Both the position numbers and the translations under genes were made by a program. Of a stretch of DNA of 64,000 nt, positions 29,183 through 50,986 are shown piece by piece; the first letter of the stretch is position 1; every line of letters begins with the position of its first letter. The stretch is from a candidate division FCPU426 bacterium. GTDB taxonomy: Bacteria > Oederibacteriota > Muellerivitia > Muellerivitales > Muellerivitaceae. The notes below the pieces were generated by a model that saw only the letters and a program-made list of their open reading frames with translations, made no database searches and was not told the origin of the DNA. The DNA lies in assembly GCA_963771075.1 (NCBI GenBank), contig CAVYSE010000005.1, forward strand, positions 38,684 through 102,683, read 5' to 3'.

Positions 29183-29314
29183 CTCTTATCAAGAGTGGCG
29201 GAGGGACAGGCCCTGCGATGCCACGGCAACCGATGCCCGGGTGAAAACCCGGGGATGCCAGGTGCCAATTCCTGCTTCGGTGCGATTTCCTATGAAACCG
29301 GGCGAAGATGAGAG
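29183..29314 (+). ncRNA. SAM-I (S-box) riboswitch
   Basis: CTCTTATCAAGAG-TGGCGGAGGGACAGGCCC-GCGATGCCACGGCAACC...GGTGCCAATTCC...GATGAGAG matches the SAM-I consensus, including P1. Confidence 0.95.
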
Positions 29315-29607: not shown

Positions 29608-30844
29608 ATGACCTACGTGAAGTCCTTAAAATGCCGTGAATGCGGGCAGGAATACGAAAAGACCGCGAAGTATGTCTGCGAGTTTTGCTTCGGCCCCCTG
29701 GAAGCGGCCTACGATTACGACGGGATCAAGAAGGACTATTTCTCGCGAGAAGATCATCTCCCGCCCCACGAACATCTGGCGTTACCGTGAGTTCTTGCCC
29801 GTCGAGGGCGAGGTCTTCAACACCCTGGGCGAGGGCTATACGCCCCTCCTGAAGGCCGAAAGGCTGGGCCGGGAACTGGGCCTCTCCAACCTCTATCTCA
29901 AAAATGATTGCGCCAATCCCACCCATTCGTTCAAGGATCGGGTGGTCGCGGTGGCATCCACCCGGGCCCTGGAATTGGGTTTTGACACCCTGGCCTGCGC
30001 CTCCACCGGCAACCTGGCCAACGCCGTGGCCGCCTACGGCGCCCGGGGCGGCATGAAGCGATTCGTGTTCATCCCCTCGAACCTGGAAAAAGGCAAGGTC
30101 ATCGGGGCCCTGGTCTATGACCCCAACCTGATCGGTGTGAACGGCAATTACGATGACGTCAACCGGCTATGTAGCGAGATCGCGGGAAAGTACAAATGGG
30201 CCTTCGTGAACATCAACATGAGGCCCTATTACGCGGAAGGTTCCAAGACGCTGGGCTATGAGACCTGCGAGCAGTTGGGATGGAAGGCGCCGGACCAGGT
30301 GGTGGTGCCGGTCGCGTCGGGGTCGCTCTTGACCAAGATCTGGAAGGGAACCCAGGAATTCGTCAAGACCGGTTTGATTTCTTCGGCCAGGATGAGGGTC
30401 TTCGGCGCGCAGGCGGAAGGTTGCTCGCCCGTGGCCACGGCCTTCAAGAACAAGACGGACACCTTCAAGCCCGTTAAACCCAACACCATCGCCAAATCGC
30501 TCGCCATCGGCAACCCCGCCGACGGTTATTACGCCTTGAAAACCATCGCCGAATCCAACGGGGCGGCCGAAATGGCTTCCGACCCGGAGATCATCGAGGG
30601 CATCAAGCTTTTGGCGCGTACCGAAGGCATCTTCGCCGAGACGGCGGGGGGAGTCACCATCGCCTGCCTGAAAAAACTGGCCGCCTCCGGCCAGTTGGAC
30701 CCGGACGCCTTGACCGTGGCCTATATTACGGGAACGGGGCTCAAGACCCAGGAAGCGGTGGCGGAACATTTGGGCGAAGTGAAGGTGATCCAGCCCAACC
30801 TGGAAGCTTTCGAGGCCACCCTGCGGGTTCCCGCCGGCGTTTAA
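29608..30844 (+). CDS. thrC: Second threonine synthase-like enzyme with N-terminal Zn ribbon (frameshift near 29735)
   Basis: CRECG...CEFCFGPL in one frame, then NPTHSFKDR, CASTGN and TGTGLKT in the next. Confidence 0.85.
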
Positions 30845-31818: not shown

Positions 31819-32712
31819 TTATTTGATCACCGTCGGGGGTTGGTCGGAGTCGTCCTTTTCCCCGGAGATGGGACCTTTTTTTTGGCCCCCGCCAAAGAGT
31901 TTCTTGAAGAAGGCGCCGATGCCCGCCACGAGGGCCACGATCAAGGCCTTGGCCTTGGCCAGGAGCACCAGGATCATCCCCCCCAGTTTTCCCAAAAGGC
32001 CCGTCTTGGCCGCGAGGGCGCCGCCCCCGCCCAATACCAGGGCCGCCAGGCCGATCTCAGCCACCTTGTCGCCGGTCGTCCATTCGGCGTATTTGTTGCC
32101 GGCCGTGAAATCGAAGCTTTTCACGTCCTCGTTGAACCGGGCCATCACCGCGTCCATGTTGGCGTTGGGCACCAGGGTCACCACCATCACGCCCTTGCGG
32201 CCCAGAAACTTAGTGTGGTAATTGATGAATTGGCCGGATTTATCCTTCAAAATTTCGCCCCACTCCAAGCGGTGGGTTTCGGGGTTGTATTGGGGTTTTA
32301 ACTGCCAGTCCACGAGTTCCATGGTGTCCCAGCCCTTGTCCGTCCTTTCCTTGTTCGCGTCCTCGTTGTTTTTCACCATGGCGGCCCACATCTTGTCCGC
32401 GTCCAGCTTTTCCTTGTCGGCGTCCTTGACGTAGCCTACGTCATCGAAGCTGAAGAGGGCCATGTATCCGTCGCCCTTGTCCTTCCGGATCAACACGCCC
32501 AGGTCCCTGTCTGAATAGAAATTATGGGTCTTGTCCATGAATTCCTTCAGGTCCTTTTGCTGGATGAAGTAATAGCCCTCGGGCACCTGGACTTGGCCAA
32601 TCTCGCCCAATTTACCCATGGCGGGGCCCTTGACGGGCTGGATCTCGGCCAGCAGGGGGGCGGACCAAAGGAATATCAGGCTGAGGACGACGAAATTTGT
32701 TTTGGAGATCAT
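31819..32712 (-). CDS. DUF2167 family membrane-anchored protein
   Basis: GYVKDAD, LGRKGV, GDKVAEIGLAALVLGG, AKTGLL. Confidence 0.85.
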   Translation of the reverse strand: MISKTNFVVLSLIFLWSAPLLAEIQPVKGPAMGKLGEIGQVQVPEGYYFIQQKDLKEFMDKTHNFYSDRDLGVLIRKDKGDGYMALFSFDDVGYVKDADKEKLDADKMWAAMVKNNEDANKERTDKGWDTMELVDWQLKPQYNPETHRLEWGEILKDKSGQFINYHTKFLGRKGVMVVTLVPNANMDAVMARFNEDVKSFDFTAGNKYAEWTTGDKVAEIGLAALVLGGGGALAAKTGLLGKLGGMILVLLAKAKALIVALVAGIGAFFKKLFGGGQKKGPISGEKDDSDQPPTVIK

Positions 32713-32888
32713 TGGATTCCTTCCCAGGGTTTTAAACGCAACGGGCCATAGTATAAGAGAAAGAGGTCCGAAAAGGGCCTGTCTTGGGGCCTGTGAGGGA
32801 TAACGGGTAGGTTAAATTTAATTGATTTGCCCCATGTTCCGTGGTTGTTTAATAGGCGCGTTGAAACAACTTCGTCACGGGAGATCCC

Positions 32889-33710
32889 ATGGAAAGTCTG
32901 CCGAAAATAGCCCAGCTTCTCGCGGAAATCAAAAACAAAAAGCCCCTGGTACACCACCTTACCAATTATGTCACGGTCAACGATTGCGCCAACATCGTGC
33001 TGGCCCTGGGCGCCTCGCCGGTCATGGCGGACGACGAGGGGGAGGTGGCCCAGATGGTGGGGCTGGCCTCGGCCCTGGTCTTGAACATCGGCACGCTCAA
33101 TGACCGGACCATCCGGTCCATGCTGGTGGCGGGCAAAAAAGCCAATGAGAAAGGGATTCCCGTTGTCCTCGACCCGGTGGGCGCGGGGGCCACTAACTTG
33201 AGGACCGAGACCGCCGCCCGATTCCTGAAGGTCATCCAATTGGCGGTGCTTCGGGGCAATATGTCGGAGATTAAGACCCTCAGCGGGGTGGGGGGAGCCA
33301 CCAAGGGGGTGGATTCGACCGCCGATTCCGCCGGAGGGCGGGAGATGGCGGTGGAGATGGCCCGGAAATACAAGTGCGTGGTCGCCATCACGGGTGCGCA
33401 GGACATCATTACGGATGGAACCCGGTTGGCTTTGATCGACAACGGCCACCCCGCCTTGTCCCAGGTGACGGGAACGGGTTGCATGGCCACCTCCCTGGTG
33501 GGCTGTTTTTGCGGGGCGACCAGCGATTATTACCTGGCGGCTTGCGGGGGGATCATGGCCATGGGCCTGGCGGGGGAGTGGGCTCAGGGAGACATGAAAC
33601 TGGGCCGTGGAATCGGGACCTTCCGGGTGAATCTCATGGACGCGATATCCCAAATGACCCCGGAAGATTTCATCAAGGGCGGCAAGATCAGCGAAGGAAC
33701 AGCCAATTGA
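32889..33710 (+). CDS. thiM: Hydroxyethylthiazole kinase
   Basis: PLVHHLTNYVTVNDCAN, LDPVGAGA, RGNMSEI, VTGTGC. Confidence 0.96.
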   Translation: MESLPKIAQLLAEIKNKKPLVHHLTNYVTVNDCANIVLALGASPVMADDEGEVAQMVGLASALVLNIGTLNDRTIRSMLVAGKKANEKGIPVVLDPVGAGATNLRTETAARFLKVIQLAVLRGNMSEIKTLSGVGGATKGVDSTADSAGGREMAVEMARKYKCVVAITGAQDIITDGTRLALIDNGHPALSQVTGTGCMATSLVGCFCGATSDYYLAACGGIMAMGLAGEWAQGDMKLGRGIGTFRVNLMDAISQMTPEDFIKGGKISEGTAN

Positions 33711-33781
33711 GGAGCGGCGCAAACCATGGGAGCAGGTCAGGTATTTACTGGAAAATGAATCGTTTATTCTGGGGAGAGTTA

Positions 33782-39309: not shown

Positions 39310-39338
39310 TTGTCCACGATGGGGACCCTTCGTGGACA
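39310..39338 (+). repeat. Cassette-boundary palindrome, copy 6 (intron target)
   Basis: TTGTCCACGATGGGGACCCTTCGTGGACA, directly before intron copy 1. Confidence 0.9.
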
Positions 39339-41317
39339 TCGTGCCAGCGAAGGTTTGTAGAGCCAGCAGGTGAGGGAGTAGGCCGAAGAGGGCCAGCCCA
39401 AATCCTGACCAGGTAATCGCCAGAGAGCCTGGAAGTCAGCCCCCGGCGTAGGACCGAGAGGTTCTGCCCGAAACGGGGTCATAAACCTCATTCAGTGAGG
39501 GAACAATCTAGCAGTCCGCAACATCAAGTGAATCCTGCCGCGTCGTGAATGGGACACCGAAAGGTGCAAGAGGATGCCGAGCCGCGTGTCTACCGGCGAA
39601 GGCCACGATCCCGCTGAAGAATCTGGAGCAAGCGGGGCAAGTCCTCCGGCGTATGGGGAACGGAATGCTGGAAAGGCTTTGCAAGCAACCTGGGAGATCC
39701 TACCCGCCAAAAGACTTGCCGCTATAAGGCTAAAACCGAAAAGGGGCAAGGGCGGGAGGAAGTCGGAGGGGGTCACAATACCTGTGAAGGGTGGACAACA
39801 AAACCACCTGGAGGGAAGGACCCCTGCTTCAACCAAGCAACCTTCAAAAGGGAGGCGCTGGAGCATGCCCCAAAGGGCCAACAACTCCGAAGACAAGGCG
39901 CGAACCCTTCAAAGGGCGCTATACCGAGCGGCCAAGAGGAGCCCAAGCCGGAGATTTCATGTACTGCATGACAGGATGACCCGATGGGATGTCCTGACAG
40001 CGGCATGGAAACAGGTGAAGGCTAATAAAGGCCAAGGAGGAGTGGACGGGGAAACGCTGGAATGGATCGAAGAGAAGGTGGGAATTATTCCATTCCTGAA
40101 GGGCATCCAGGAAGAACTCAAAGCTGGGAAGTATCTGCCTAAACCTGTGAGACGAGTGGAAATACCCAAGCCTGATGGAAGCAAGAGACCGTTGGGAATC
40201 CCGGTAATTCGGGATCGGGTAGTTCAAGCGGCTTGCCGGAAGGTGGTGGAACCCATCTTTGAGGCGGACTTTCTGGAAGGCTCGTTTGGATTTCGGCCAA
40301 AACGCGGAGCCCAGCAGGCCCACCGGGAGATCAAGAAGTGGATCAATGGCGGGTACAGATGGGTGGTGGATGGAGATATTCGGAAGTATTTCGATTCCAT
40401 CGACCACGACAAACTGATGGTGCTGGTGCGCCAGAGGATCAGTGACCGGAAGGTTTTGAAACTGATCCGAGGGTGGCTGAAGGCGGGTGTGTTTGAGGAA
40501 GGAAGGCTTACGCCGACTCTCCGAGGGACACCGCAAGGCGGGGTGATCTCACCGCTGTTATCCAATGTTTACCTTCACTTGCTGGACAAGGTTTGGAATA
40601 AGAGGCACAGGAAACTGGGTAGGCTGGTGCGCTACGCCGACGATTTTGTGGTGTTGTGCGGAAGCCAAGCCCATGCGGAAAAGAGCCTGGAAGTCATCAA
40701 GGAATTGATGGGACGACTAGGGCTTGAACTGCACCCCGAAAAGACACGGCTGGTGGAAATGGGGCCTGGGAAGGAAGGGTTTGACTTCCTTGGGTTCCAC
40801 TTTCGAGTAGGTATGCCGGTGGTAGGATTGGGTAAGACCTGTTGCCTGAGCTGGCCGAGCCGGAAGGCCATGAAGAAAATCGCCGAGAAAGTGAAGCAGA
40901 TGACGGCGGGCCGAGAGCGGCTCTTATCTCCAATGGAGGATGTAGCGAAGGCTTTGAACCCGGTGTTAAGGGGGTGGGCCAACTATTTCCGAATTGGGGA
41001 CAGCCAGCCATACTTTTCCAAGCTTCAATTTTACGTACTCGAAAGGCTGACTTTGTTTCGGAGGCATAAGTACGCCTGGGAAGGACGAACATGGTCGATC
41101 GAGGAAGTGAAACGCCTTGGTTTGAACTGGATTCCAGCTTTTGCCTTGAATGCTGCCGGTTGAAAGGTTGTCGGAAAGCCGTATGATCGAAAAGGTCACG
41201 TACGGTTTGATGAGGGGGCGCTGGAAACGTGGTGATGAGAGCCGGACTGAGGCCCAATCCGAAAGGGTTGGATTCGCCACCGTACTCTAAGGCATACGCG
41301 CCAGCGCTCTACTCTGC
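39339..41317 (+). mobile_element. Group II intron, copy 1 (~1.98 kb)
   Basis: Appears identical to the other two copies between these limits. Contains an RT ORF, domain V (AAGCCGTATG...TACGGTTT, 41176-41208) and a domain VI ending CTACTCTGC. Confidence 0.93.
39865..41163 (+). CDS. ltrA: Group II intron reverse transcriptase/maturase (no endonuclease domain)
   Basis: GGAGG RBS, RPLGIPVIRDRVVQ, GTPQGGVISPLLSN, RYADDF, FDFLGF, LRGWANYF. Confidence 0.95.
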   Translation: MPQRANNSEDKARTLQRALYRAAKRSPSRRFHVLHDRMTRWDVLTAAWKQVKANKGQGGVDGETLEWIEEKVGIIPFLKGIQEELKAGKYLPKPVRRVEIPKPDGSKRPLGIPVIRDRVVQAACRKVVEPIFEADFLEGSFGFRPKRGAQQAHREIKKWINGGYRWVVDGDIRKYFDSIDHDKLMVLVRQRISDRKVLKLIRGWLKAGVFEEGRLTPTLRGTPQGGVISPLLSNVYLHLLDKVWNKRHRKLGRLVRYADDFVVLCGSQAHAEKSLEVIKELMGRLGLELHPEKTRLVEMGPGKEGFDFLGFHFRVGMPVVGLGKTCCLSWPSRKAMKKIAEKVKQMTAGRERLLSPMEDVAKALNPVLRGWANYFRIGDSQPYFSKLQFYVLERLTLFRRHKYAWEGRTWSIEEVKRLGLNWIPAFALNAAG

Positions 41318-41353
41318 ACGAAAAGTCACGCATAAGAGGCAGTTTATGATTAG

Positions 41354-41773
41354 TTGGCCAATTTGAAAAAGATTAAACCCTGGGTGAAATTTTGGTTATT
41401 CGCAGGAACTTTATTATTTGGTTACGTGTTTTGGGGGTTGGTTGAAGAAGTTGCTTTCAATAATCGATTTTTTATCCCCACTTTGAGTTCTCGGATGGTT
41501 CGGTTAACCGGGTTCATTCATTTTCGCATAATCGACTTTTGGTGTTCCAATTGTATCTACGTTTTAGACAGTTCTGGCTCCCAAATTAAAGTGATCGTTC
41601 CCCAAAAAGTCCAAGACGAAGTTCGGAGAACAAATTGGGGAGATTTAAAAAAGAACGGGAAAACAGTATTTGTTGACTTGAATGCAATATCTGGGGGTCT
41701 CGGGGATTATTATGTTTGTACGAGAGTCAATTCGATTAATGTCGTTGATGGAGTTGTTTCAGTAAGCAAATAA
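41354..41773 (+). CDS. Hypothetical membrane-anchored cassette protein
   Basis: AT-rich ORF with an N-terminal TM segment, ending 13 nt before a repeat. Confidence 0.6.
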   Translation: MANLKKIKPWVKFWLFAGTLLFGYVFWGLVEEVAFNNRFFIPTLSSRMVRLTGFIHFRIIDFWCSNCIYVLDSSGSQIKVIVPQKVQDEVRRTNWGDLKKNGKTVFVDLNAISGGLGDYYVCTRVNSINVVDGVVSVSK

Positions 41774-41786
41774 TTCACATGAAGAG

Positions 41787-41815
41787 CTGTCCACGACGGG
41801 GACCCGTCGTGGACG
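41787..41815 (+). repeat. Cassette-boundary palindrome, copy 7
   Basis: CTGTCCACGACGGGGACCCGTCGTGGACG. Confidence 0.9.
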
Positions 41816-41867
41816 ATGTTTTTAAGTTTATTACCCAAATTATAAGTTCTTTCAGATTGGATGTTTT

Positions 41868-43253
41868 ATGAAGAACCGATGGCAATGGGCGGTGACGATT
41901 GGGGCTGTCCCACTCTATTACCTCCTTTCGCTTATTCCTCTTTATCATTACCCTAATTTTACTAATTCCCATGTAGGCAATCCGCCTATTGGATTGTTCG
42001 CACTTGGCCCAACACCGATCTATAGTGGTTTTGTATTTGTAGAAATCATTTCCATCCTGGTCAATCCTTTAAAGCGATGGAGAACACAAGGGATGGCAGG
42101 CAGGGAAAAAATACATCGAGTTCAGCTTATTTTTATGTTTCTTGCAGCCATGTTTCAGGGATGGGGCACGGGTGAACTTATTAAAACTTTTGGCCCCGAT
42201 TACACGGTGGAAATATTTGGAACGACCGGACTAGCCGCTCAAATTATTCTGTGTTCCTGTTTGGTTAACGGCGTCTTGATCTTCTACTTGATCGCTACAA
42301 ATGTGTCCCTGTATGGTTTGTTCAATGGTTTTATTCTTTTCCTTTTCGTACGGCCCCTGGTGTCGAAAACTCTGGGTCTCATCGATGGAATCCAAACGGA
42401 CTTACGCTTGCCCGTTGACCTTCACTTTTCTAATTTTGATGAAAAAATGAATTTTATATATTTCTTTTTCGTCCTTGTAGGCGTGGGGTTTGTTCTGTAC
42501 CAAAAACGAAAGAAAATATTAGAACTTATTTATCATTATGTGCTTCGTAACCCATTGGTTGGCTATCAAACAAAAGAAAAATTGTATCAAGTGAAAACTT
42601 CGCCCGTTCCTCAAACGTTAACGGGTGGTTTGGGTGTTTTGGTGCTGATTCTACAAATGGTTTTGTACCAACATGGCGCTTTTTCGGATAACGGGACTTT
42701 GCGAAATGTGCTATGGGTCGGGGCGGATATGATTGATCTGGGTGTGACATCTTTTTTACTTTGGCTTTTATTTACCAACACCTACTGGGTCGATCATCAT
42801 CTGGAAGGACGGGCGTCTTGGCTTCCTGAACGGGACAAATTGAAGCCTTATTTTATTTTTTGGCTTGTGATGTCCGCTTTCGCAGTATTAATAAATGAGT
42901 CACCATTGTTTTTCCATTTTTCATTAACTATTGAAAAATTGAGCCGTATTTTTCTTGAGCCTATTTTCATCCTGACGACGGTCATTTTAGGGATAGAAAT
43001 TTACGAAAAATGGCAATTCGAGCAAAGGTCGATTCAAAAAGTATGCCTGGCCGAAATGGATAATGTGGAATTGGTCCAGCTTTGGGTGGCCCAACTTGAA
43101 GAGGCGAATCTTTCCTTTCATGTGGAGGGCCTTCGTTATAGGCAACTTACGCAATTCTTTGCGCCTTATTTGAAAATGAGGCTGTTTGTGGATGAAAGTC
43201 AGGCCCAGGACGCGGTAAGCATCATTCGTTTAGAAGAAGTTAAGCAAATATAA
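41868..43253 (+). CDS. Polytopic membrane protein, SecY-like N-terminus and DUF2007-like C-terminus
   Basis: GLFALGPTPIYSGFVFVEI resembles SecY SIFALGIxPYI. About 10 TMs. C-terminal LEEANL...MRLFVDESQAQDA. Confidence 0.55.
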   Translation: MKNRWQWAVTIGAVPLYYLLSLIPLYHYPNFTNSHVGNPPIGLFALGPTPIYSGFVFVEIISILVNPLKRWRTQGMAGREKIHRVQLIFMFLAAMFQGWGTGELIKTFGPDYTVEIFGTTGLAAQIILCSCLVNGVLIFYLIATNVSLYGLFNGFILFLFVRPLVSKTLGLIDGIQTDLRLPVDLHFSNFDEKMNFIYFFFVLVGVGFVLYQKRKKILELIYHYVLRNPLVGYQTKEKLYQVKTSPVPQTLTGGLGVLVLILQMVLYQHGAFSDNGTLRNVLWVGADMIDLGVTSFLLWLLFTNTYWVDHHLEGRASWLPERDKLKPYFIFWLVMSAFAVLINESPLFFHFSLTIEKLSRIFLEPIFILTTVILGIEIYEKWQFEQRSIQKVCLAEMDNVELVQLWVAQLEEANLSFHVEGLRYRQLTQFFAPYLKMRLFVDESQAQDAVSIIRLEEVKQI

Positions 43254-43265
43254 TGTGGGAGTTCG

Positions 43266-43294
43266 CTGTCCACGATGGGGACCCGTCGTGGACA
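43266..43294 (+). repeat. Cassette-boundary palindrome, copy 8
   Basis: CTGTCCACGATGGGGACCCGTCGTGGACA. Confidence 0.9.
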
Positions 43295-43374
43295 AGCTTT
43301 AGTCACAAGGCCAAGATGAAAATTCAAAATGGGTGATTATTGAAAACTGAGAAGGTGGAAAGAAGCTTAACCCA

Positions 43375-43875
43375 ATGGAAAATTCTTACAATTTAGAAAA
43401 AACTATTTGGTCAGAAGCCGACTTTGAAAAAATGTGTTGGCATGATGTTCATGTCCATGGAATTTCGTTTGGGCCAATGTCGGAAGAAAACGGAACGGCC
43501 GATTTTTTATTTGATATTGATTACCTCTTTGAATGGATAAAACCCATTGCGCCTGAAATTTTCTATAGCTTTTGGATAGCCCCATGCACTCTCGTTTTTG
43601 AAAACGCGTATGACTTTAAAATGCAAATAGAAGACAAAATAGGTTTTGCTTTCGGTCCCTTTGTAATAGAAGATTTTTCAATGGCTGAGAACCTGGAACG
43701 GGATGGCGTTCATTACGGTTACCGTTGGAAAATCAAACTTAGAACCGGGTGGATAGAATTGAAATCCTACGGATTAAAACAATACGTTCGCCAAAAACCG
43801 AGAGTGGGTGGCCAATGGTTGTTATTTGAAGAACGGGCCGGTGTGAATTATCAAAAAAAATATTCCGGGTCGTAA
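43375..43875 (+). CDS. Conserved-looking hypothetical cassette protein
   Basis: DFEKMCWHD...FDIDYLFEW...FWIAPCTLVFEN. Stop lies 3 nt before a repeat. Confidence 0.7.
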   Translation: MENSYNLEKTIWSEADFEKMCWHDVHVHGISFGPMSEENGTADFLFDIDYLFEWIKPIAPEIFYSFWIAPCTLVFENAYDFKMQIEDKIGFAFGPFVIEDFSMAENLERDGVHYGYRWKIKLRTGWIELKSYGLKQYVRQKPRVGGQWLLFEERAGVNYQKKYSGS

Positions 43876-43878
43876 GGG

Positions 43879-43907
43879 TTGTCCACGATGGGGACCCATC
43901 GTGGACA
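43879..43907 (+). repeat. Cassette-boundary palindrome, copy 9 (intron target)
   Basis: TTGTCCACGATGGGGACCCATCGTGGACA. Confidence 0.9.
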
Positions 43908-45886
43908 TCGTGCCAGCGAAGGTTTGTAGAGCCAGCAGGTGAGGGAGTAGGCCGAAGAGGGCCAGCCCAAATCCTGACCAGGTAATCGCCAGAGAGCCTG
44001 GAAGTCAGCCCCCGGCGTAGGACCGAGAGGTTCTGCCCGAAACGGGGTCATAAACCTCATTCAGTGAGGGAACAATCTAGCAGTCCGCAACATCAAGTGA
44101 ATCCTGCCGCGTCGTGAATGGGACACCGAAAGGTGCAAGAGGATGCCGAGCCGCGTGTCTACCGGCGAAGGCCACGATCCCGCTGAAGAATCTGGAGCAA
44201 GCGGGGCAAGTCCTCCGGCGTATGGGGAACGGAATGCTGGAAAGGCTTTGCAAGCAACCTGGGAGATCCTACCCGCCAAAAGACTTGCCGCTATAAGGCT
44301 AAAACCGAAAAGGGGCAAGGGCGGGAGGAAGTCGGAGGGGGTCACAATACCTGTGAAGGGTGGACAACAAAACCACCTGGAGGGAAGGACCCCTGCTTCA
44401 ACCAAGCAACCTTCAAAAGGGAGGCGCTGGAGCATGCCCCAAAGGGCCAACAACTCCGAAGACAAGGCGCGAACCCTTCAAAGGGCGCTATACCGAGCGG
44501 CCAAGAGGAGCCCAAGCCGGAGATTTCATGTACTGCATGACAGGATGACCCGATGGGATGTCCTGACAGCGGCATGGAAACAGGTGAAGGCTAATAAAGG
44601 CCAAGGAGGAGTGGACGGGGAAACGCTGGAATGGATCGAAGAGAAGGTGGGAATTATTCCATTCCTGAAGGGCATCCAGGAAGAACTCAAAGCTGGGAAG
44701 TATCTGCCTAAACCTGTGAGACGAGTGGAAATACCCAAGCCTGATGGAAGCAAGAGACCGTTGGGAATCCCGGTAATTCGGGATCGGGTAGTTCAAGCGG
44801 CTTGCCGGAAGGTGGTGGAACCCATCTTTGAGGCGGACTTTCTGGAAGGCTCGTTTGGATTTCGGCCAAAACGCGGAGCCCAGCAGGCCCACCGGGAGAT
44901 CAAGAAGTGGATCAATGGCGGGTACAGATGGGTGGTGGATGGAGATATTCGGAAGTATTTCGATTCCATCGACCACGACAAACTGATGGTGCTGGTGCGC
45001 CAGAGGATCAGTGACCGGAAGGTTTTGAAACTGATCCGAGGGTGGCTGAAGGCGGGTGTGTTTGAGGAAGGAAGGCTTACGCCGACTCTCCGAGGGACAC
45101 CGCAAGGCGGGGTGATCTCACCGCTGTTATCCAATGTTTACCTTCACTTGCTGGACAAGGTTTGGAATAAGAGGCACAGGAAACTGGGTAGGCTGGTGCG
45201 CTACGCCGACGATTTTGTGGTGTTGTGCGGAAGCCAAGCCCATGCGGAAAAGAGCCTGGAAGTCATCAAGGAATTGATGGGACGACTAGGGCTTGAACTG
45301 CACCCCGAAAAGACACGGCTGGTGGAAATGGGGCCTGGGAAGGAAGGGTTTGACTTCCTTGGGTTCCACTTTCGAGTAGGTATGCCGGTGGTAGGATTGG
45401 GTAAGACCTGTTGCCTGAGCTGGCCGAGCCGGAAGGCCATGAAGAAAATCGCCGAGAAAGTGAAGCAGATGACGGCGGGCCGAGAGCGGCTCTTATCTCC
45501 AATGGAGGATGTAGCGAAGGCTTTGAACCCGGTGTTAAGGGGGTGGGCCAACTATTTCCGAATTGGGGACAGCCAGCCATACTTTTCCAAGCTTCAATTT
45601 TACGTACTCGAAAGGCTGACTTTGTTTCGGAGGCATAAGTACGCCTGGGAAGGACGAACATGGTCGATCGAGGAAGTGAAACGCCTTGGTTTGAACTGGA
45701 TTCCAGCTTTTGCCTTGAATGCTGCCGGTTGAAAGGTTGTCGGAAAGCCGTATGATCGAAAAGGTCACGTACGGTTTGATGAGGGGGCGCTGGAAACGTG
45801 GTGATGAGAGCCGGACTGAGGCCCAATCCGAAAGGGTTGGATTCGCCACCGTACTCTAAGGCATACGCGCCAGCGCTCTACTCTGC
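43908..45886 (+). mobile_element. Group II intron, copy 2
   Basis: Same sequence as copy 1 (offset 4569) with different flanks. Confidence 0.93.
44434..45732 (+). CDS. ltrA: Group II intron RT/maturase
   Basis: Protein identical to copy 1. Confidence 0.95.
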   Translation: MPQRANNSEDKARTLQRALYRAAKRSPSRRFHVLHDRMTRWDVLTAAWKQVKANKGQGGVDGETLEWIEEKVGIIPFLKGIQEELKAGKYLPKPVRRVEIPKPDGSKRPLGIPVIRDRVVQAACRKVVEPIFEADFLEGSFGFRPKRGAQQAHREIKKWINGGYRWVVDGDIRKYFDSIDHDKLMVLVRQRISDRKVLKLIRGWLKAGVFEEGRLTPTLRGTPQGGVISPLLSNVYLHLLDKVWNKRHRKLGRLVRYADDFVVLCGSQAHAEKSLEVIKELMGRLGLELHPEKTRLVEMGPGKEGFDFLGFHFRVGMPVVGLGKTCCLSWPSRKAMKKIAEKVKQMTAGRERLLSPMEDVAKALNPVLRGWANYFRIGDSQPYFSKLQFYVLERLTLFRRHKYAWEGRTWSIEEVKRLGLNWIPAFALNAAG

Positions 45887-45927
45887 ATGAAAAGTACCAA
45901 TGGAGCGTCTGATAGGGTGAGGTATTA

Positions 45928-46905
45928 ATGGGATTTTTTGAAGAATTCAAAAAACTGCTGTGGCTCTACAACCCCCTTAAAAAATCTGGAAGGCCTGGGG
46001 AGATTAAGAGCCGAGGCATCAACGGAGCTGTTTTTTGCCCCATTTACAACCATTGGATTTCCAACCTTGAGTGTTTAGAAACGAGCGGGGAGCGCGGCTC
46101 CTACGACGAAATTGACAAACCCGATTTAAATCATTTGGAAACCGGCTACAACGATATTCATAACGCGACTAAACGTAGCGGGCATAAATTCCCCCAAGAC
46201 ATTAAAAAAGTGGTCATTACCTGTGAGTATTGTGAAGCCTACTGCCTCGGCCAGGAAAATGGACCTCTAGTAGTCCCTCCCATTGACAGTATCGATCGAA
46301 AGAAATTGTTGTTCGATTTATATGACGAAAGTAAAAGATATTCAAAAGACACCATTGACCCAACGGAATTGGAGAAGATTAAAAAGGCAGCCATGGAACT
46401 GAGCGAAAAAGCCGGAAAATACTTGGCCGAACATCTGAACCTTGAAAAAGAAATACGCGAAATAACAGTCGAATTCGAAGCGCAAGAAACTGGAAAAACG
46501 GGTTTTTGGATCATTCTTTTTGGCCTCGTTTTTGCTGTCGCCGGATTCGGGAATCTTTGGAATGTCAACTGGTTCGCTCATAAAGCCTTTCAGGGGAAAG
46601 GGGCTGTTTTGTCGGTAGAGAAAAAAGAAGCGACCGACAGTGGCAAATGGATTGCCCGGGTCCGATATACCCCTCGGAATTACCCAGAAGTCGTCGCTGA
46701 GCTTGAAGTTGAAAAACCTTATGAAACAAATCAATTGGTAGAATTTCTTTATGACCCACAAAACCCCAATAAGCTACGGCCCGCCAGCTGGTCAAAAAAA
46801 AGTCCGCTGACCAATTTCTTTTTGGCGATAATTGGCATTGTTGTCATCGGGTTCGGCTGGAGCAAATTAAAAGTTGCCAGGCCTTTTTATCCGAAAAGGG
46901 GTTAA
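45928..46905 (+). CDS. Membrane protein with DUF3592-like C-terminal region
   Basis: TM, beta region and VEFLYDPQNP, then TM. Cys-containing N-terminus. Confidence 0.6.
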   Translation: MGFFEEFKKLLWLYNPLKKSGRPGEIKSRGINGAVFCPIYNHWISNLECLETSGERGSYDEIDKPDLNHLETGYNDIHNATKRSGHKFPQDIKKVVITCEYCEAYCLGQENGPLVVPPIDSIDRKKLLFDLYDESKRYSKDTIDPTELEKIKKAAMELSEKAGKYLAEHLNLEKEIREITVEFEAQETGKTGFWIILFGLVFAVAGFGNLWNVNWFAHKAFQGKGAVLSVEKKEATDSGKWIARVRYTPRNYPEVVAELEVEKPYETNQLVEFLYDPQNPNKLRPASWSKKSPLTNFFLAIIGIVVIGFGWSKLKVARPFYPKRG

Positions 46906-46929
46906 AAGGTTGCTATGAGGCCATTCCTC

Positions 46930-47119
46930 AAGTTCAATTAAGCCCACCCGTCAGCCTTTTGGTTTCGCGGATTCACGCTGCTATTCGTGCTCGAGGCACA
47001 AGTTAAAAATTCGATAATCCAGTAGGGAAGCCACCAGCTGTCCATCGTGCCTTACGGCACCACCAAATTCCGTGGTCATTCCAAAGGGATCGAATCACAA
47101 AACCGAGGCTGAAACCTCT
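46930..47119 (-). ncRNA. Putative bridge/seek RNA region of the IS1111 element
   Basis: About 190 nt of non-coding sequence 3' of the transposase, as expected for IS1111. Contains AGCTGTCCA (47036-47044, + strand), which matches the repeat junction. Confidence 0.55.
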
Positions 47120-48196
47120 TTAGCGCATGGGCCGATACACTTCCTTCCGAACCAACATCGTCCAAAGGTGAATCAAAAGCTTGTGCGCCATTGCCACAAT
47201 CGCCTTGTTGACGTGTCCCGTATTACGGACCAGTCGACGAAAAACACGGTAGGCCTGGGTATCCTTTTGGATCCATGACCAGGCCGCTTCAACCAAGGTC
47301 GCTCTCAAAGTGCCTTTTCCGGCCTTCTGTAAATGGCCTTCCTTCCGGGTTTCACCGCTTTGCCTGATCCTAGGGGCCAACCCCACGTAAGCCGCCACTT
47401 GTTTGGCGTTTTCAAAGCGTTCCGGCTGGTAAATCTCCGTTAATACTTGCAGGGTCGTCACTTCGCCCACTCCTGGGTGGGTTCTCAGGATCTTGGCCTT
47501 TTTCTCGTAGGCCTTCTCCTTCATCATGACCCTCAAACGTATGTTCACGTCCTTGAGCTGCCTATCAAAGTAAAAAAGATCTTCCAATAGGCGATCCAAG
47601 GTGAACCTCAGGGCAGGTGGCAGTTCCATTTCCCGTAATATCCCAATGGCTTCGTGGGTCCAGTAATCCAACCCTCTGGGAGTTTTGAGCCCATATTGAA
47701 GGAAGAAGCTCTTGATCCTTTGTTTGGCCTTGCGTTTCTGCTCGACCATCGCGTTCCTCAAACGAACCACCTGCCGGTCAGCTTCTTCCTGGAGGGTTGG
47801 GATCGCCACCGCCTTCAGCAATTCTTTCTCCGCATACTCCGCCAGTTTGCTACAGTCCAAACGGTCGGATTTTGTTTCAAACTGCGACACGCGAGGAGTC
47901 TTGTGCGGGGCGATGACATCCAATGGGTATCCCTCCTCCCGAAGGCGGCGGGCCAGGCCAAAACCGGTAGGGCCTGCCTCGTAGACGACCTTTTTCAACC
48001 CCACCCGATAAGGCGCCAGGACCTTCACCACCGCCTCCCAGTCCGCTGTCAGGGACTTTGTTCCGACTTCCTTTCCGTTAATCCTGATTGCCATATAAAT
48101 ACTTCGTTTGTGGACATCCAATCCCACAAACACAGCGTCCCGCTTGGATACCTCCTTGCCTCGGTATCCTTTTTTGCTAATCTGTTTCATGGCCAT
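47120..48196 (-). CDS. IS110-family DEDD recombinase/transposase
   Basis: FVGLDVHK, YEAGPTG, KSDRLD, PGVG, YVGLAPRIRQSG, AIVAMAHKL. Confidence 0.95.
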   Translation of the reverse strand: MAMKQISKKGYRGKEVSKRDAVFVGLDVHKRSIYMAIRINGKEVGTKSLTADWEAVVKVLAPYRVGLKKVVYEAGPTGFGLARRLREEGYPLDVIAPHKTPRVSQFETKSDRLDCSKLAEYAEKELLKAVAIPTLQEEADRQVVRLRNAMVEQKRKAKQRIKSFFLQYGLKTPRGLDYWTHEAIGILREMELPPALRFTLDRLLEDLFYFDRQLKDVNIRLRVMMKEKAYEKKAKILRTHPGVGEVTTLQVLTEIYQPERFENAKQVAAYVGLAPRIRQSGETRKEGHLQKAGKGTLRATLVEAAWSWIQKDTQAYRVFRRLVRNTGHVNKAIVAMAHKLLIHLWTMLVRKEVYRPMR

Positions 48197-48266
48197 TCCT
48201 CCTTGTGAGTTGCCTGCTCACCGGGACTAGTTTAATCCCGGCGGAGGAATGGCCTTCATGTTACCT

Positions 48267-48293
48267 GTCCACGACGGGGACCCGTCGTGGACA
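48267..48293 (+). repeat. Cassette-boundary palindrome, copy 10 (IS1111 target)
   Basis: GTCCACGACGGGGACCCGTCGTGGACA. The missing TT lies at 46910-46911. Confidence 0.9.
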
Positions 48294-48376
48294 CCTAATT
48301 CTGACGTGGCTTTGGATAAACCTCTTTGCTTTAGTCATGGGTGATAAGGACTGAATTTTAGGACGAAAGGAAAACC

Positions 48377-48961
48377 ATGAAAACCGTTCTTGTTATTTTA
48401 GCATTGATCGTTTTGGTTTTTTTCTTTTGGAAGTTCAAATCCCGGCGTCTTTTTGACCCGGAAGCCCTCATGCCGGGTTACGCACAGAAGGCCATCTCGA
48501 CCGCCAAGGAAAAGTATGGCCTCACTTTGGATCTGGACGAAAAAAACTTGAAAGTTCTTGAGATGAAAATTATGAGGCCGCTAAGTGAAGAGTTTAAGAA
48601 AAAAGCCTTATCGGACGAAGAACTTGCGAACAATTGCATTCTTTGGGGGGCTTATCTGGGGGAAATGTTAAAGAAGGCTTCGCCCTACTGGTCTCAGGCC
48701 CATTGGAGATTAAATGATTCAGAAAAAGGCCAACAAACAATTAATCCAAACCAGATTGGTTTGGCGGGAAAGGATTTTGTGGTTTATCCCGGTGCTTGGG
48801 TTCAAAAACATATCGAAGACCCTATAAACGATAATTTCGTGGGAAAGTATGAATTAGCTTATCAACTGCCAAACACGGATCAGAATAAAAAGGGCACTCA
48901 GGGTCAGCTGATAGATAAAGATGGGAACCCTATCAAAATGCGATATATGCCTGAAAAGTAA
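48377..48961 (+). CDS. Hypothetical membrane-anchored protein (GAYLGE motif, immunity-like)
   Basis: N-terminal TM and WGAYLGEML motif. Confidence 0.6.
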   Translation: MKTVLVILALIVLVFFFWKFKSRRLFDPEALMPGYAQKAISTAKEKYGLTLDLDEKNLKVLEMKIMRPLSEEFKKKALSDEELANNCILWGAYLGEMLKKASPYWSQAHWRLNDSEKGQQTINPNQIGLAGKDFVVYPGAWVQKHIEDPINDNFVGKYELAYQLPNTDQNKKGTQGQLIDKDGNPIKMRYMPEK

Positions 48962-48978
48962 TAGATTGTTTGGTGAAG

Positions 48979-49007
48979 TTGTCCACGACGGGGACCCATC
49001 GTGGACG
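48979..49007 (+). repeat. Cassette-boundary palindrome, copy 11 (intron target)
   Basis: TTGTCCACGACGGGGACCCATCGTGGACG. Confidence 0.9.
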
Positions 49008-50986
49008 TCGTGCCAGCGAAGGTTTGTAGAGCCAGCAGGTGAGGGAGTAGGCCGAAGAGGGCCAGCCCAAATCCTGACCAGGTAATCGCCAGAGAGCCTG
49101 GAAGTCAGCCCCCGGCGTAGGACCGAGAGGTTCTGCCCGAAACGGGGTCATAAACCTCATTCAGTGAGGGAACAATCTAGCAGTCCGCAACATCAAGTGA
49201 ATCCTGCCGCGTCGTGAATGGGACACCGAAAGGTGCAAGAGGATGCCGAGCCGCGTGTCTACCGGCGAAGGCCACGATCCCGCTGAAGAATCTGGAGCAA
49301 GCGGGGCAAGTCCTCCGGCGTATGGGGAACGGAATGCTGGAAAGGCTTTGCAAGCAACCTGGGAGATCCTACCCGCCAAAAGACTTGCCGCTATAAGGCT
49401 AAAACCGAAAAGGGGCAAGGGCGGGAGGAAGTCGGAGGGGGTCACAATACCTGTGAAGGGTGGACAACAAAACCACCTGGAGGGAAGGACCCCTGCTTCA
49501 ACCAAGCAACCTTCAAAAGGGAGGCGCTGGAGCATGCCCCAAAGGGCCAACAACTCCGAAGACAAGGCGCGAACCCTTCAAAGGGCGCTATACCGAGCGG
49601 CCAAGAGGAGCCCAAGCCGGAGATTTCATGTACTGCATGACAGGATGACCCGATGGGATGTCCTGACAGCGGCATGGAAACAGGTGAAGGCTAATAAAGG
49701 CCAAGGAGGAGTGGACGGGGAAACGCTGGAATGGATCGAAGAGAAGGTGGGAATTATTCCATTCCTGAAGGGCATCCAGGAAGAACTCAAAGCTGGGAAG
49801 TATCTGCCTAAACCTGTGAGACGAGTGGAAATACCCAAGCCTGATGGAAGCAAGAGACCGTTGGGAATCCCGGTAATTCGGGATCGGGTAGTTCAAGCGG
49901 CTTGCCGGAAGGTGGTGGAACCCATCTTTGAGGCGGACTTTCTGGAAGGCTCGTTTGGATTTCGGCCAAAACGCGGAGCCCAGCAGGCCCACCGGGAGAT
50001 CAAGAAGTGGATCAATGGCGGGTACAGATGGGTGGTGGATGGAGATATTCGGAAGTATTTCGATTCCATCGACCACGACAAACTGATGGTGCTGGTGCGC
50101 CAGAGGATCAGTGACCGGAAGGTTTTGAAACTGATCCGAGGGTGGCTGAAGGCGGGTGTGTTTGAGGAAGGAAGGCTTACGCCGACTCTCCGAGGGACAC
50201 CGCAAGGCGGGGTGATCTCACCGCTGTTATCCAATGTTTACCTTCACTTGCTGGACAAGGTTTGGAATAAGAGGCACAGGAAACTGGGTAGGCTGGTGCG
50301 CTACGCCGACGATTTTGTGGTGTTGTGCGGAAGCCAAGCCCATGCGGAAAAGAGCCTGGAAGTCATCAAGGAATTGATGGGACGACTAGGGCTTGAACTG
50401 CACCCCGAAAAGACACGGCTGGTGGAAATGGGGCCTGGGAAGGAAGGGTTTGACTTCCTTGGGTTCCACTTTCGAGTAGGTATGCCGGTGGTAGGATTGG
50501 GTAAGACCTGTTGCCTGAGCTGGCCGAGCCGGAAGGCCATGAAGAAAATCGCCGAGAAAGTGAAGCAGATGACGGCGGGCCGAGAGCGGCTCTTATCTCC
50601 AATGGAGGATGTAGCGAAGGCTTTGAACCCGGTGTTAAGGGGGTGGGCCAACTATTTCCGAATTGGGGACAGCCAGCCATACTTTTCCAAGCTTCAATTT
50701 TACGTACTCGAAAGGCTGACTTTGTTTCGGAGGCATAAGTACGCCTGGGAAGGACGAACATGGTCGATCGAGGAAGTGAAACGCCTTGGTTTGAACTGGA
50801 TTCCAGCTTTTGCCTTGAATGCTGCCGGTTGAAAGGTTGTCGGAAAGCCGTATGATCGAAAAGGTCACGTACGGTTTGATGAGGGGGCGCTGGAAACGTG
50901 GTGATGAGAGCCGGACTGAGGCCCAATCCGAAAGGGTTGGATTCGCCACCGTACTCTAAGGCATACGCGCCAGCGCTCTACTCTGC
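49008..50986 (+). mobile_element. Group II intron, copy 3
   Basis: Same sequence as copy 1 (offset 9669) with different flanks. Confidence 0.93.
49534..50832 (+). CDS. ltrA: Group II intron RT/maturase
   Basis: Protein identical to copy 1. Confidence 0.95.
   Translation: MPQRANNSEDKARTLQRALYRAAKRSPSRRFHVLHDRMTRWDVLTAAWKQVKANKGQGGVDGETLEWIEEKVGIIPFLKGIQEELKAGKYLPKPVRRVEIPKPDGSKRPLGIPVIRDRVVQAACRKVVEPIFEADFLEGSFGFRPKRGAQQAHREIKKWINGGYRWVVDGDIRKYFDSIDHDKLMVLVRQRISDRKVLKLIRGWLKAGVFEEGRLTPTLRGTPQGGVISPLLSNVYLHLLDKVWNKRHRKLGRLVRYADDFVVLCGSQAHAEKSLEVIKELMGRLGLELHPEKTRLVEMGPGKEGFDFLGFHFRVGMPVVGLGKTCCLSWPSRKAMKKIAEKVKQMTAGRERLLSPMEDVAKALNPVLRGWANYFRIGDSQPYFSKLQFYVLERLTLFRRHKYAWEGRTWSIEEVKRLGLNWIPAFALNAAG

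Follow-up and report, generated by a model that had tools for sequence, protein, structure and literature searches.

Within a 64,000-nucleotide (nt) stretch of DNA from an uncultured soil bacterium (candidate division FCPU426; assembly GCA_963771075.1, contig CAVYSE010000005.1, positions 38,684 to 102,683), hereafter called the window, three identical group II introns interrupt the same arm of a recurring palindrome. The reading that we consider likely is that of an active IIB-type, class F-like intron without an endonuclease (En) domain, which retrohomes into the 3′ arm of a family-specific palindrome by base pairing. In the proposed mechanism, the excised intron RNA, together with its reverse transcriptase (RT)/maturase, would reverse-splice between ...GUGGACR and A, whereby exon-binding site 1 (EBS1; UGUCUAC, in a hairpin loop of domain I) would pair with exon positions -1 to -7, the candidate EBS2 (AUGGG) with CCCAU or CCCGU at -13 to -9, and the +1 A would serve as intron-binding site 3 (IBS3). 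As the site is a palindrome, the same 13-nt target would be available on both strands, leading to insertions in both orientations. Presumably, cDNA synthesis is primed from replication-fork strands, as in other En-minus introns, because the intron-encoded protein (IEP) carries no endonuclease domain. The features concerned are the following, all on the forward strand.

39312-39338: target palindrome of copy 1, GTCCACGATGGGGACCCTTCGTGGAC followed by A; its 3′ arm holds IBS2 (CCCNU, -13 to -9) and IBS1 (GUGGACR, -7 to -1)
43881-43907: target palindrome of copy 2
48981-49007: target palindrome of copy 3, with G at -1
39339-41317: group II intron copy 1, 5′ UCGUG ... CUCUGC 3′, delimited by Rfam matches, alignment with relatives and a head-to-tail contig
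43908-45886: group II intron copy 2, identical to copy 1
49008-50986: group II intron copy 3, identical to copy 1
41318: first 3′ exon base of copy 1, A (IBS3), equivalent to A at 45887 (copy 2) and 50987 (copy 3)
39549-39553: candidate EBS2 (AUGGG), pairing with CCCAU/CCCGU at exon -13 to -9, proposed by comparison with relatives L216, L217, L219 and L062
39581-39597: EBS1 hairpin of domain I, stem GCCG/CGGC, 9-nt loop CGUGUCUAC, with EBS1 UGUCUAC at 39587-39593
39865-41163 (44434-45732 and 49534-50832 in the other copies): IEP, 432 amino acids, RT and maturase (X) domains, YADD motif
41176-41208: domain V, AGC triad at 41177-41179, 4-bp upper helix, 5-nt loop GAAAA
41210-41317: domain VI with an insertion of about 80 nt and a candidate branch A at 41311, 6 nt before the 3′ end

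Intron copies and their target site

The three window introns, described beforehand as identical elements starting at 39339, 43908 and 49008, are indeed 1979 nt each and mutually 100% identical over 1980 nt, and each matches the Rfam models RF02003 (D1-D4-4; 60.9 bits, cut-off 49 bits) and RF00029 (domain V/VI; 43.4 bits, cut-off 40 bits). They begin directly after the palindrome arm ...CCCNTCGTGGACR, copies 1, 2 and 3 being preceded by GTGGACA, GTGGACA and GTGGACG, respectively, and their mutual identity stops at ...CUCUGC-A. In the source assembly (G000; 4.39 Mb in 28 contigs) there are ten full-length copies, eight at 100%, one at 99.95% and one at 99.4% identity, as well as three 5′ fragments and three short 3′ pieces. 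When all genomic copies and their flanks were listed, 13 of 13 5′ junctions directly followed ...CCCRTCGTGGACR, which forms the 3′ arm of a palindrome of 26-38 nt, with GTGGACA, GTGGACG and GTAGACA as arm variants (...CGT(G/A)GACR). The +1 exon base is A after all ten full-length copies and after two detached 3′ fragments. The start after GTGGACR with A on the other side, which the preliminary description had given for the window copies, was thus found again, with the intron refined to 39339-41317 and A41318 assigned to the exon.

Repeated elements of this kind could also spread by DNA duplication or recombination of intron-bearing cassettes rather than by retrohoming, and the surrounding arrays are rich in repeats, with two 5′ fragments on contig C26 lying head to head between near-identical flanks. 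Apart from this pair, however, the flanks outside the 26-nt palindrome differ on both sides among all copies, and the identity ends exactly at the intron ends. Moreover, relative to the asymmetric palindrome centre (GGGGACCC versus GGGTCCCC) and to the cassette direction, eight of the 13 insertions are in the sense orientation and five are opposite, which is possible because the same 12-nt arm is present on both strands. Duplication as the way of spread is therefore very improbable. Even less probable is that the intron itself makes the palindrome, or brings it along within a common mobile unit, and that no such target was there beforehand. The two do co-occur in several genomes of the family, but the source genome contains 66 palindromes (up to 3 mismatches) against 13 insertions, in sister genome G007 the pattern matches 39 times and the intron not at all, and G020, G023 and G028 likewise contain the palindrome but no intron.

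Near-identical copies, intact reading frames and a differing occupancy among sister genomes fit recent mobility of the intron, and the earlier proposal of recent activity agrees with nine copies at 99.9-100% identity and an intact IEP frame in 10 of 10 full-length copies. Contigs from an RNA library match parts of the intron at ~100%, which is a weak sign of activity since DNA may be present in the library. Contigs of run X15, from an RNA library, did not cover the flanking cassettes, which says nothing about cassette expression. None of the public-run contigs spanned an empty target site, and joints in run X1 were set aside because their sides, of 22-29 nt, fall within the repeat.

DNA related to the window intron occurs in 11 of 24 other genomes of the same family. 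Copies of 93-96% identity (G008, G025 and G026) and a group of 74-77% identity (G013, G016, G025 and G026) occupy exactly the same position of the palindrome, and one sister-genome copy (L223) is followed by G instead of A at +1. The suggestion that the intron has specialised on the array site is borne out by the 13 junctions and by these relatives in five sister genomes; the accompanying term 'cassette site' stands as an analogy only, for want of an integron integrase (see below). Scans of genome and metagenome contigs gave relatives of up to 57-58% identity, the closer ones coming only from the genome search.

Pairing of EBS1 with the exon

The loop GCCG-CGTGTCTAC-CGGC, put forward earlier as EBS1, is located at 39581-39597, and its positions 3-9 (UGUCUAC) pair with exon positions -1 to -7 (GUGGACR), with U accepting A or G at -1 and -5. 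In a MAFFT alignment of relatives, the hairpin GA-NNNN-[9 nt]-NNNN-GAAGG is conserved. Automatic parsing of 83 sources gave 44 usable introns (5 lacked a hairpin match and 34 a start motif), and in 42 of these 44 at least three contiguous EBS1 bases are paired in the same register. The mean pairing was 4.77, against 2.51 in 2000 shuffles (shuffle maximum 3.16). In the nearest subclade, exon ends as different as ...ATT, ...GGC, ...GTG, ...TTC, ...TCG, ...CTT and ...TTT are each matched by the loop of the respective intron, and an RNAalifold consensus of 11 sequences (95 pairs, 63 of them with compensatory changes) places the EBS1 loop at a hairpin tip in distal domain I. Covariation and consensus fold together thus identify the TGTCTA loop as EBS1, as had been proposed from the window.

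The same holds at closer range. Relatives at the same site have the EBS1 variants UGUCUAC, UGUCCAC, UGUCCAU and UGUCCAA, and in the last of these (L222) A9 stands opposite U(-7), a compensatory change. A relative in G009 has the target GCAUGGR and EBS1 UUCAUGC, together with EBS2 GAGAGG:CCUCUC, and one in G040, a genome in which the palindrome was not found, has the target UUGGCA and EBS1 UGCCA, together with EBS2 AUGUGCC:GGCACAU. L216 is inserted at GGUGUAAUGGGCA, with 7 bp of EBS1 and 5 bp of EBS2 pairing (ACACC:GGUGU).

EBS2 and the choice of site

The genome contains 540 empty GT[GA]GAC[AG]A sites, of which 453 lie outside a hairpin-arm context, and none of these 453 is occupied. All 13 insertions lie inside such a context, which by our own arithmetic has a chance of ~2e-10. 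As 453 sites with IBS1 and IBS3 are empty, EBS1 plus the +1 A is insufficient to define the site. Homing by EBS1 pairing, as first suggested, therefore stands as far as the pairing itself is concerned but not as the whole explanation, and the remaining specificity is probably supplied by EBS2.

The candidate EBS2 segment directly precedes a small GNRA hairpin and, in the consensus fold, comes two helices ahead of EBS1. In several relatives this segment is complementary to exon positions -9 to -14, with a different sequence each time: ACACC:GGUGU in L216, GAGAGG:CCUCUC in L217 and AUGUGCC:GGCACAU in L219. L062 has 7 bp in the cognate-pair test and 12 bp in a wide-window search, and L034, L035, L061 and L064 have 5-6 bp. 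Runs of at least 5 occurred in 9 of 19 cognate pairs, compared with 16% of 304 non-cognate pairs. We read the choice of site as IIB-type homing, with 7 bp of EBS1, about 5 bp of EBS2 and A as IBS3, the EBS2 of the window intron being a candidate proposed from its relatives.

Intron ends and the encoded protein

Alignment with relatives ending in ...CACUCUAC or ...CUACUCUAC puts the intron end at C41317 and A41318 in the exon, and the RF00029 match stops at 41317 as well. In addition, a contig from a public soil run (run X3, record 29, 2009 nt) reads 39339-41317 and then directly 39339-39368. This would fit either full-length intron circles, which are a known group II intron product according to the available part of PMC8266578, or tandem copies in the DNA, arising when a second intron inserts at a 5′ junction that is still intact. 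Whichever its origin, the junction fixes the unit length at 1979 nt. For the Leptospira plasmid relative (L133) and a second intron (C3b), no firm position of the 5′ boundary was found.

Among relatives the 5′ ends are GUGUG, GCGUG or UCGUG. Of the close relatives, U1 goes with a penultimate G in the window intron, L216, L227 and L230, and G1 with a penultimate A in L219, L017, L220, L222 and L217. This covariation matches the contact between the first base and the penultimate one described by Chanfreau and Jacquier (1993), whom the available part of PMC4238363 cites. The insertion of about 80 nt in domain VI sits between the basal helix and the tip. Close relatives also have it, though with another sequence, and the Paenibacillus relatives lack it.

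The IEP matches RVT_1 (1.1e-38), GIIM (2.1e-14) and TIGR04416 (422.9 bits, cut-off 300), and lacks an endonuclease domain. Its start is most likely the ATG at 39865 rather than the ATG at 39574, which opens the longest open reading frame (ORF) and overlaps domain I. The IEP is 56.5% identical to that of a metagenome-assembled genome of the Planctomycetales, 55.1% to that of a Leptospira plasmid and 41.0% to that of Nitrobacter hamburgensis. Its identity to the remaining anchors (class C, class D, R478 and En-containing) is 32-33%.

Class of the intron

Class C (IIC) introns have a short domain V with a CGC triad. As a control we used the Neobacillus intron L102, which shows Rfam D1D4-3, a CGC triad, a 3-bp upper helix, a 4-nt domain V loop, a GUGUG start and a terminator immediately upstream. 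The window intron has AGC instead of CGC, D1D4-4 instead of D1D4-3, and a 5-nt instead of a 4-nt loop. It also differs from the class C pattern of a short IBS1 without EBS2, since EBS1 and IBS1 form 7 bp inside the stem and a candidate EBS2 is present, and the adjoining hairpin overlaps IBS1, unlike the class C stem-loop, which lies just upstream. The class C RTs 7uim and 6ar1 are the best solved-structure matches of the window IEP (224 and 220 bits); the control, which is 32.6% identical to it, scored 521 and 341 bits with the same chains. All 20 relatives scanned have D1D4-4, and all 16 inspected have the same type of domain V. The window intron is thus clearly not a class C intron: both the full-length domain V with its AGC triad and the non-IIC assignment given beforehand agree with the comparison to the control, in RNA subtype and domain V as well as in the RT.

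The other half of that assignment, class F-like, fared less evenly. For comparison we took an N. hamburgensis plasmid intron to be class F/g3, a label that we gave by species name alone, and a Sinorhizobium meliloti intron (L131; Rfam D1D4-2) to be an RmInt1-like class D intron, assumed from the organism; the R478 and Bacillus mycoides anchors have D1D4-6. The N. hamburgensis intron has D1D4-4 and the same type of domain V as the window intron. An N-terminal LQRxLYxxAK..RF motif, which the class C and D anchors lack, is common to the IEPs of the window intron, of N. hamburgensis and of FADD-type introns. In the parts of the literature available, a 5-nt domain V loop is a IIE/IIF trait (PMC3753933), and Ni.ha.I1 and Ni.ha.I2 are class F, regrouped as g3 (Toro 2013, PMC3552965).

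In an IEP tree of 86 rows (IQ-TREE quick mode, with support from the Shimodaira-Hasegawa-like approximate likelihood ratio test only), the window intron joins L017 (93) and then the Leptospira (81) and Megaera (80) introns, with a Firmicutes clade (99) as the sister of this group (82). All anchors, including the class C control, fall outside the enclosing clade of 78 rows (89); deeper nodes are without support and long branches were flagged. N. hamburgensis, the sole class F anchor in the tree, is the nearest anchor (41% identity) yet falls outside this clade. The RT phylogeny thus separates the window intron from class C, and formal membership of class F is possible. 'Class F-like' seems the best label, because the 5-nt domain V loop, the Rfam subtype and the N-terminal motif are shared with the N. 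hamburgensis intron.

Base pairing or hairpin shape

Several findings weigh against retrohoming by a IIB-type, class F-like intron as outlined above. Splicing and mobility are predictions from the sequence. The ends UCGUG...GC deviate from the GUGYG...AY consensus, and EBS3 was looked for in the window intron and not located, so that of the domain I elements announced earlier the EBS1 loop at a hairpin tip stands and EBS3 is missing. The EBS2 pairing of the window intron amounts to 5 bp at most and is broken by T at -10 in 3 of 13 sites, including that of window copy 1. The sister group of 74-77% identity has the same target, yet its homologous segment AGAGUCC pairs over 2 bp in that register (judged by eye, a 4-bp alternative GUCC:GGAC is possible). 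The wide-window shuffle test of EBS2 was marginal (6.78 versus 6.37, standard deviation 0.16, with some shuffles at 6.91). The class label hangs on one class F anchor named by species, and the deep tree nodes are unsupported. Finally, the introns of the Firmicutes sister clade lie behind rho-independent terminators, so that partial recognition of hairpin shape is possible.

These terminator-associated introns (L034, L035, L036, L121 and L128 of Neobacillus; L061, L062 and L064 of Paenibacillus) have the same non-IIC RNA type as the window intron, and in one genome of the clade five different terminators are occupied. Their EBS2 position holds an A-rich segment with complementarity to the stem end plus U tract, over as many as 12 bp in L062, and terminator targeting in this clade looks like a matter of base pairing.

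The alternative raised by these points is class C-like targeting, in which the ribonucleoprotein would recognise the folded DNA hairpin with a short IBS1, and pairing with the arm would be secondary. It would account for the fact that 13 of 13 insertions adjoin a hairpin while none of the 453 other IBS1 and IBS3 sites is used, for the five terminators occupied in one Firmicutes genome, and for the weak EBS2 support in the window intron and the 74-77% group. However, the 7-nt IBS1 lies inside the stem, so the outer stem must open for pairing, and the arms of the L216 site are not complementary although both EBS1 (7 bp) and EBS2 (5 bp) match. The G040 relative has a matched EBS1 and EBS2 in a genome where the hairpin was not found, the terminator-associated relatives show 5-7 bp (up to 12 bp) of EBS2 complementarity to the descending stem and U tract, and neither RNA nor IEP is of class C. 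Taken together, we regard recognition of shape as unlikely, though less remote than the duplication and carriage scenarios discussed above, and prefer site choice by EBS1 and EBS2 pairing.

A wider version of the pairing model, to which we give less than even weight, is that the whole class F-like clade has specialised on 'safe' hairpin sites, Firmicutes terminators on the one hand and the cassette palindromes of this family on the other, by pairing with the descending arm and not by shape, and that the palindrome is the recombination site of an undescribed integrase-less cassette system. EBS2 would then pair with the stem end and U tract or with CCCRU, and EBS1 with the bases that follow. If true, this would be a convergent and mechanistically different route to a lifestyle thought to be unique to class C.

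The palindrome arrays

The palindrome is a near-perfect 12+2+12 structure. Its pattern occurs 19 times in the window when both strands are counted, at 11 sites, and not once in 100 shuffles. The 66 palindromes of the genome are grouped in arrays. Of 24 other genomes of the same family, 17 contain the palindrome, as opposed to 0 of 16 genomes from outside the family, and in G009 it forms at least ten dispersed clusters. The arrays lie as follows.

33784-57334 of the window: ORF-plus-palindrome array
other contigs of G000: further ORF-plus-palindrome arrays
L233 and L234 (G009): ORF-plus-palindrome arrays

In the window, as in two arrays from a near-complete sister genome, a unit consists of one or two ORFs and a palindrome that lies ~5-75 nt behind them and is always oriented the same way. 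The genes carried are accessory ones, unrelated to one another, along with toxin-antitoxin pairs.

An integron was considered and rejected. No integron integrase above the cut-off was found in G000, G007, G008, G009, G013 or G026 (90-99% complete), with TIGR02249 (cut-off 265 bits) scoring at best 41.8 bits in G000 and 79 in G013, and the site is a near-perfect palindrome and not an imperfect attC of the R''-L''...L'-R' type with extrahelical bases. 'Cassette site' is thus used by analogy, without a demonstrated attC, and the ORF-plus-palindrome arrays may be an undescribed cassette system. The ORF at 32712-33722 (reverse strand), next to the first palindrome, was discarded as a spurious antisense frame of a ThiM-like gene. 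Repetitive extragenic palindromic (REP) elements with their associated tyrosine transposases (RAYT) were also considered and seem improbable; the genome has 20 Y1-transposase matches, none of which, by eye, closely flanks the palindromes.

Other elements adjoin the palindromes as well. A second group II intron, outside the window (G000:C3, ~168470-169985, reverse strand), has an RT with a FADD motif, is truncated at its 3′ end and is nearest to a B. mycoides plasmid intron. It splits one palindrome (GTCCACGACGGGGA | ... | CCCGTCGTGGAC), and the loop at its EBS1 position, CGUCGUG, is complementary to the palindrome-arm sequence CACGACG, with the junction 4 nt off the predicted site. The half-site CCCRTCGTGGACAA is joined to one and the same foreign end (TTGCGCTTAGCTACATGG) at five genomic positions, as if another element enters the palindrome centre. 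An IS110-family transposase gene (window 47123-48196, reverse strand) adjoins the palindrome at 48267.

Comparison with known group II introns

Group IIC-attC introns, S.ma.I2 and relatives, have been described before (Quiroga 2008; Leon & Roy 2009; as cited in the parts of PMC4424553 and PMC7923331 available). Like the window intron, they are En-less and repeatedly occupy a hairpin-forming site between cassettes, a harmless multicopy harbour. They belong to class C (short domain V, CGC triad, short IBS1), recognise a bulged stem-loop and lie antisense in true integron attC sites, whereas the window intron has a IIF-like RNA, a 7-bp EBS1 plus a candidate EBS2, 8 of 13 insertions in sense and a target without integron integrase.

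With class F/IIF introns (Pe.th.I2, Ge.ur.I1 and Ni.ha.I1, from what is available of PMC3753933 and PMC3552965), it shares a 5-nt domain V loop, a small IIB-like ribozyme, an En-less RT/maturase and the use of EBS1 and EBS2. It differs in its ends (UCGUG...GC), in an IEP of 41% identity to that of N. hamburgensis, in belonging to a clade of the tree that excludes the N. hamburgensis anchor and in having a multicopy palindrome instead of a single homing site.

UHB.I2 and H.ha.F1/F2 resemble it as non-IIC introns (CL1, class E) with En-less IEPs that lie in cassette orientation after attC-like hairpins of an integron or of a cluster of attC sites lacking integrases (CALIN). In the available part of that report (Sonbol & Siam 2021, PMC7923331), they are single or truncated copies whose site choice is speculative, whereas the window intron has 13 insertions, copies in sister genomes and covariation. 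RmInt1 (class D) is likewise an En-less IIB-type intron that colonises a multicopy repeat, ISRm2011-2, via EBS1, EBS2 and EBS3, as far as the portions of PMC1802570 and PMC4075523 at hand describe it; it belongs to another class and targets an insertion sequence, unlike the window intron with its 26-nt palindrome usable on both strands. In the available parts of two reviews (PMC4424553, PMC7306698), hairpins, terminators and attC sites are targets for class C only, and other lineages home to ordinary sequence sites. Our literature search found nothing closer that links group II introns with REP-type palindromes or IIB introns with cassettes.

The mechanism is standard, and what is new is the lineage, the target, the use of both strands and the unusual, covarying intron ends. 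A lineage outside class C would here occupy hairpin sites in high copy number with the standard EBS/IBS code. The natural covariation makes the specificity readable and retargetable, and extends to the first and penultimate intron bases (U1-G versus G1-A). The intron also flags family-wide ORF-plus-palindrome arrays without integron integrase, which may be a cassette system of their own.

Further observations

Most introns of the same RNA type at loci L019-L095 and L135-L214 follow (C)ATG and then start with GUGCG, with CAUG as EBS1. This type accounts for 31 of the 43 non-redundant genome introns and for 19 of the 25 that were parsed in metagenomes, and the metagenome loci gave no additional introns of another type with reliable starts. 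Finally, a SAM riboswitch (RF00162, 72.4 bits) lies in the window at 29183-29314, upstream of a PALP-domain enzyme gene at 29636-30844.

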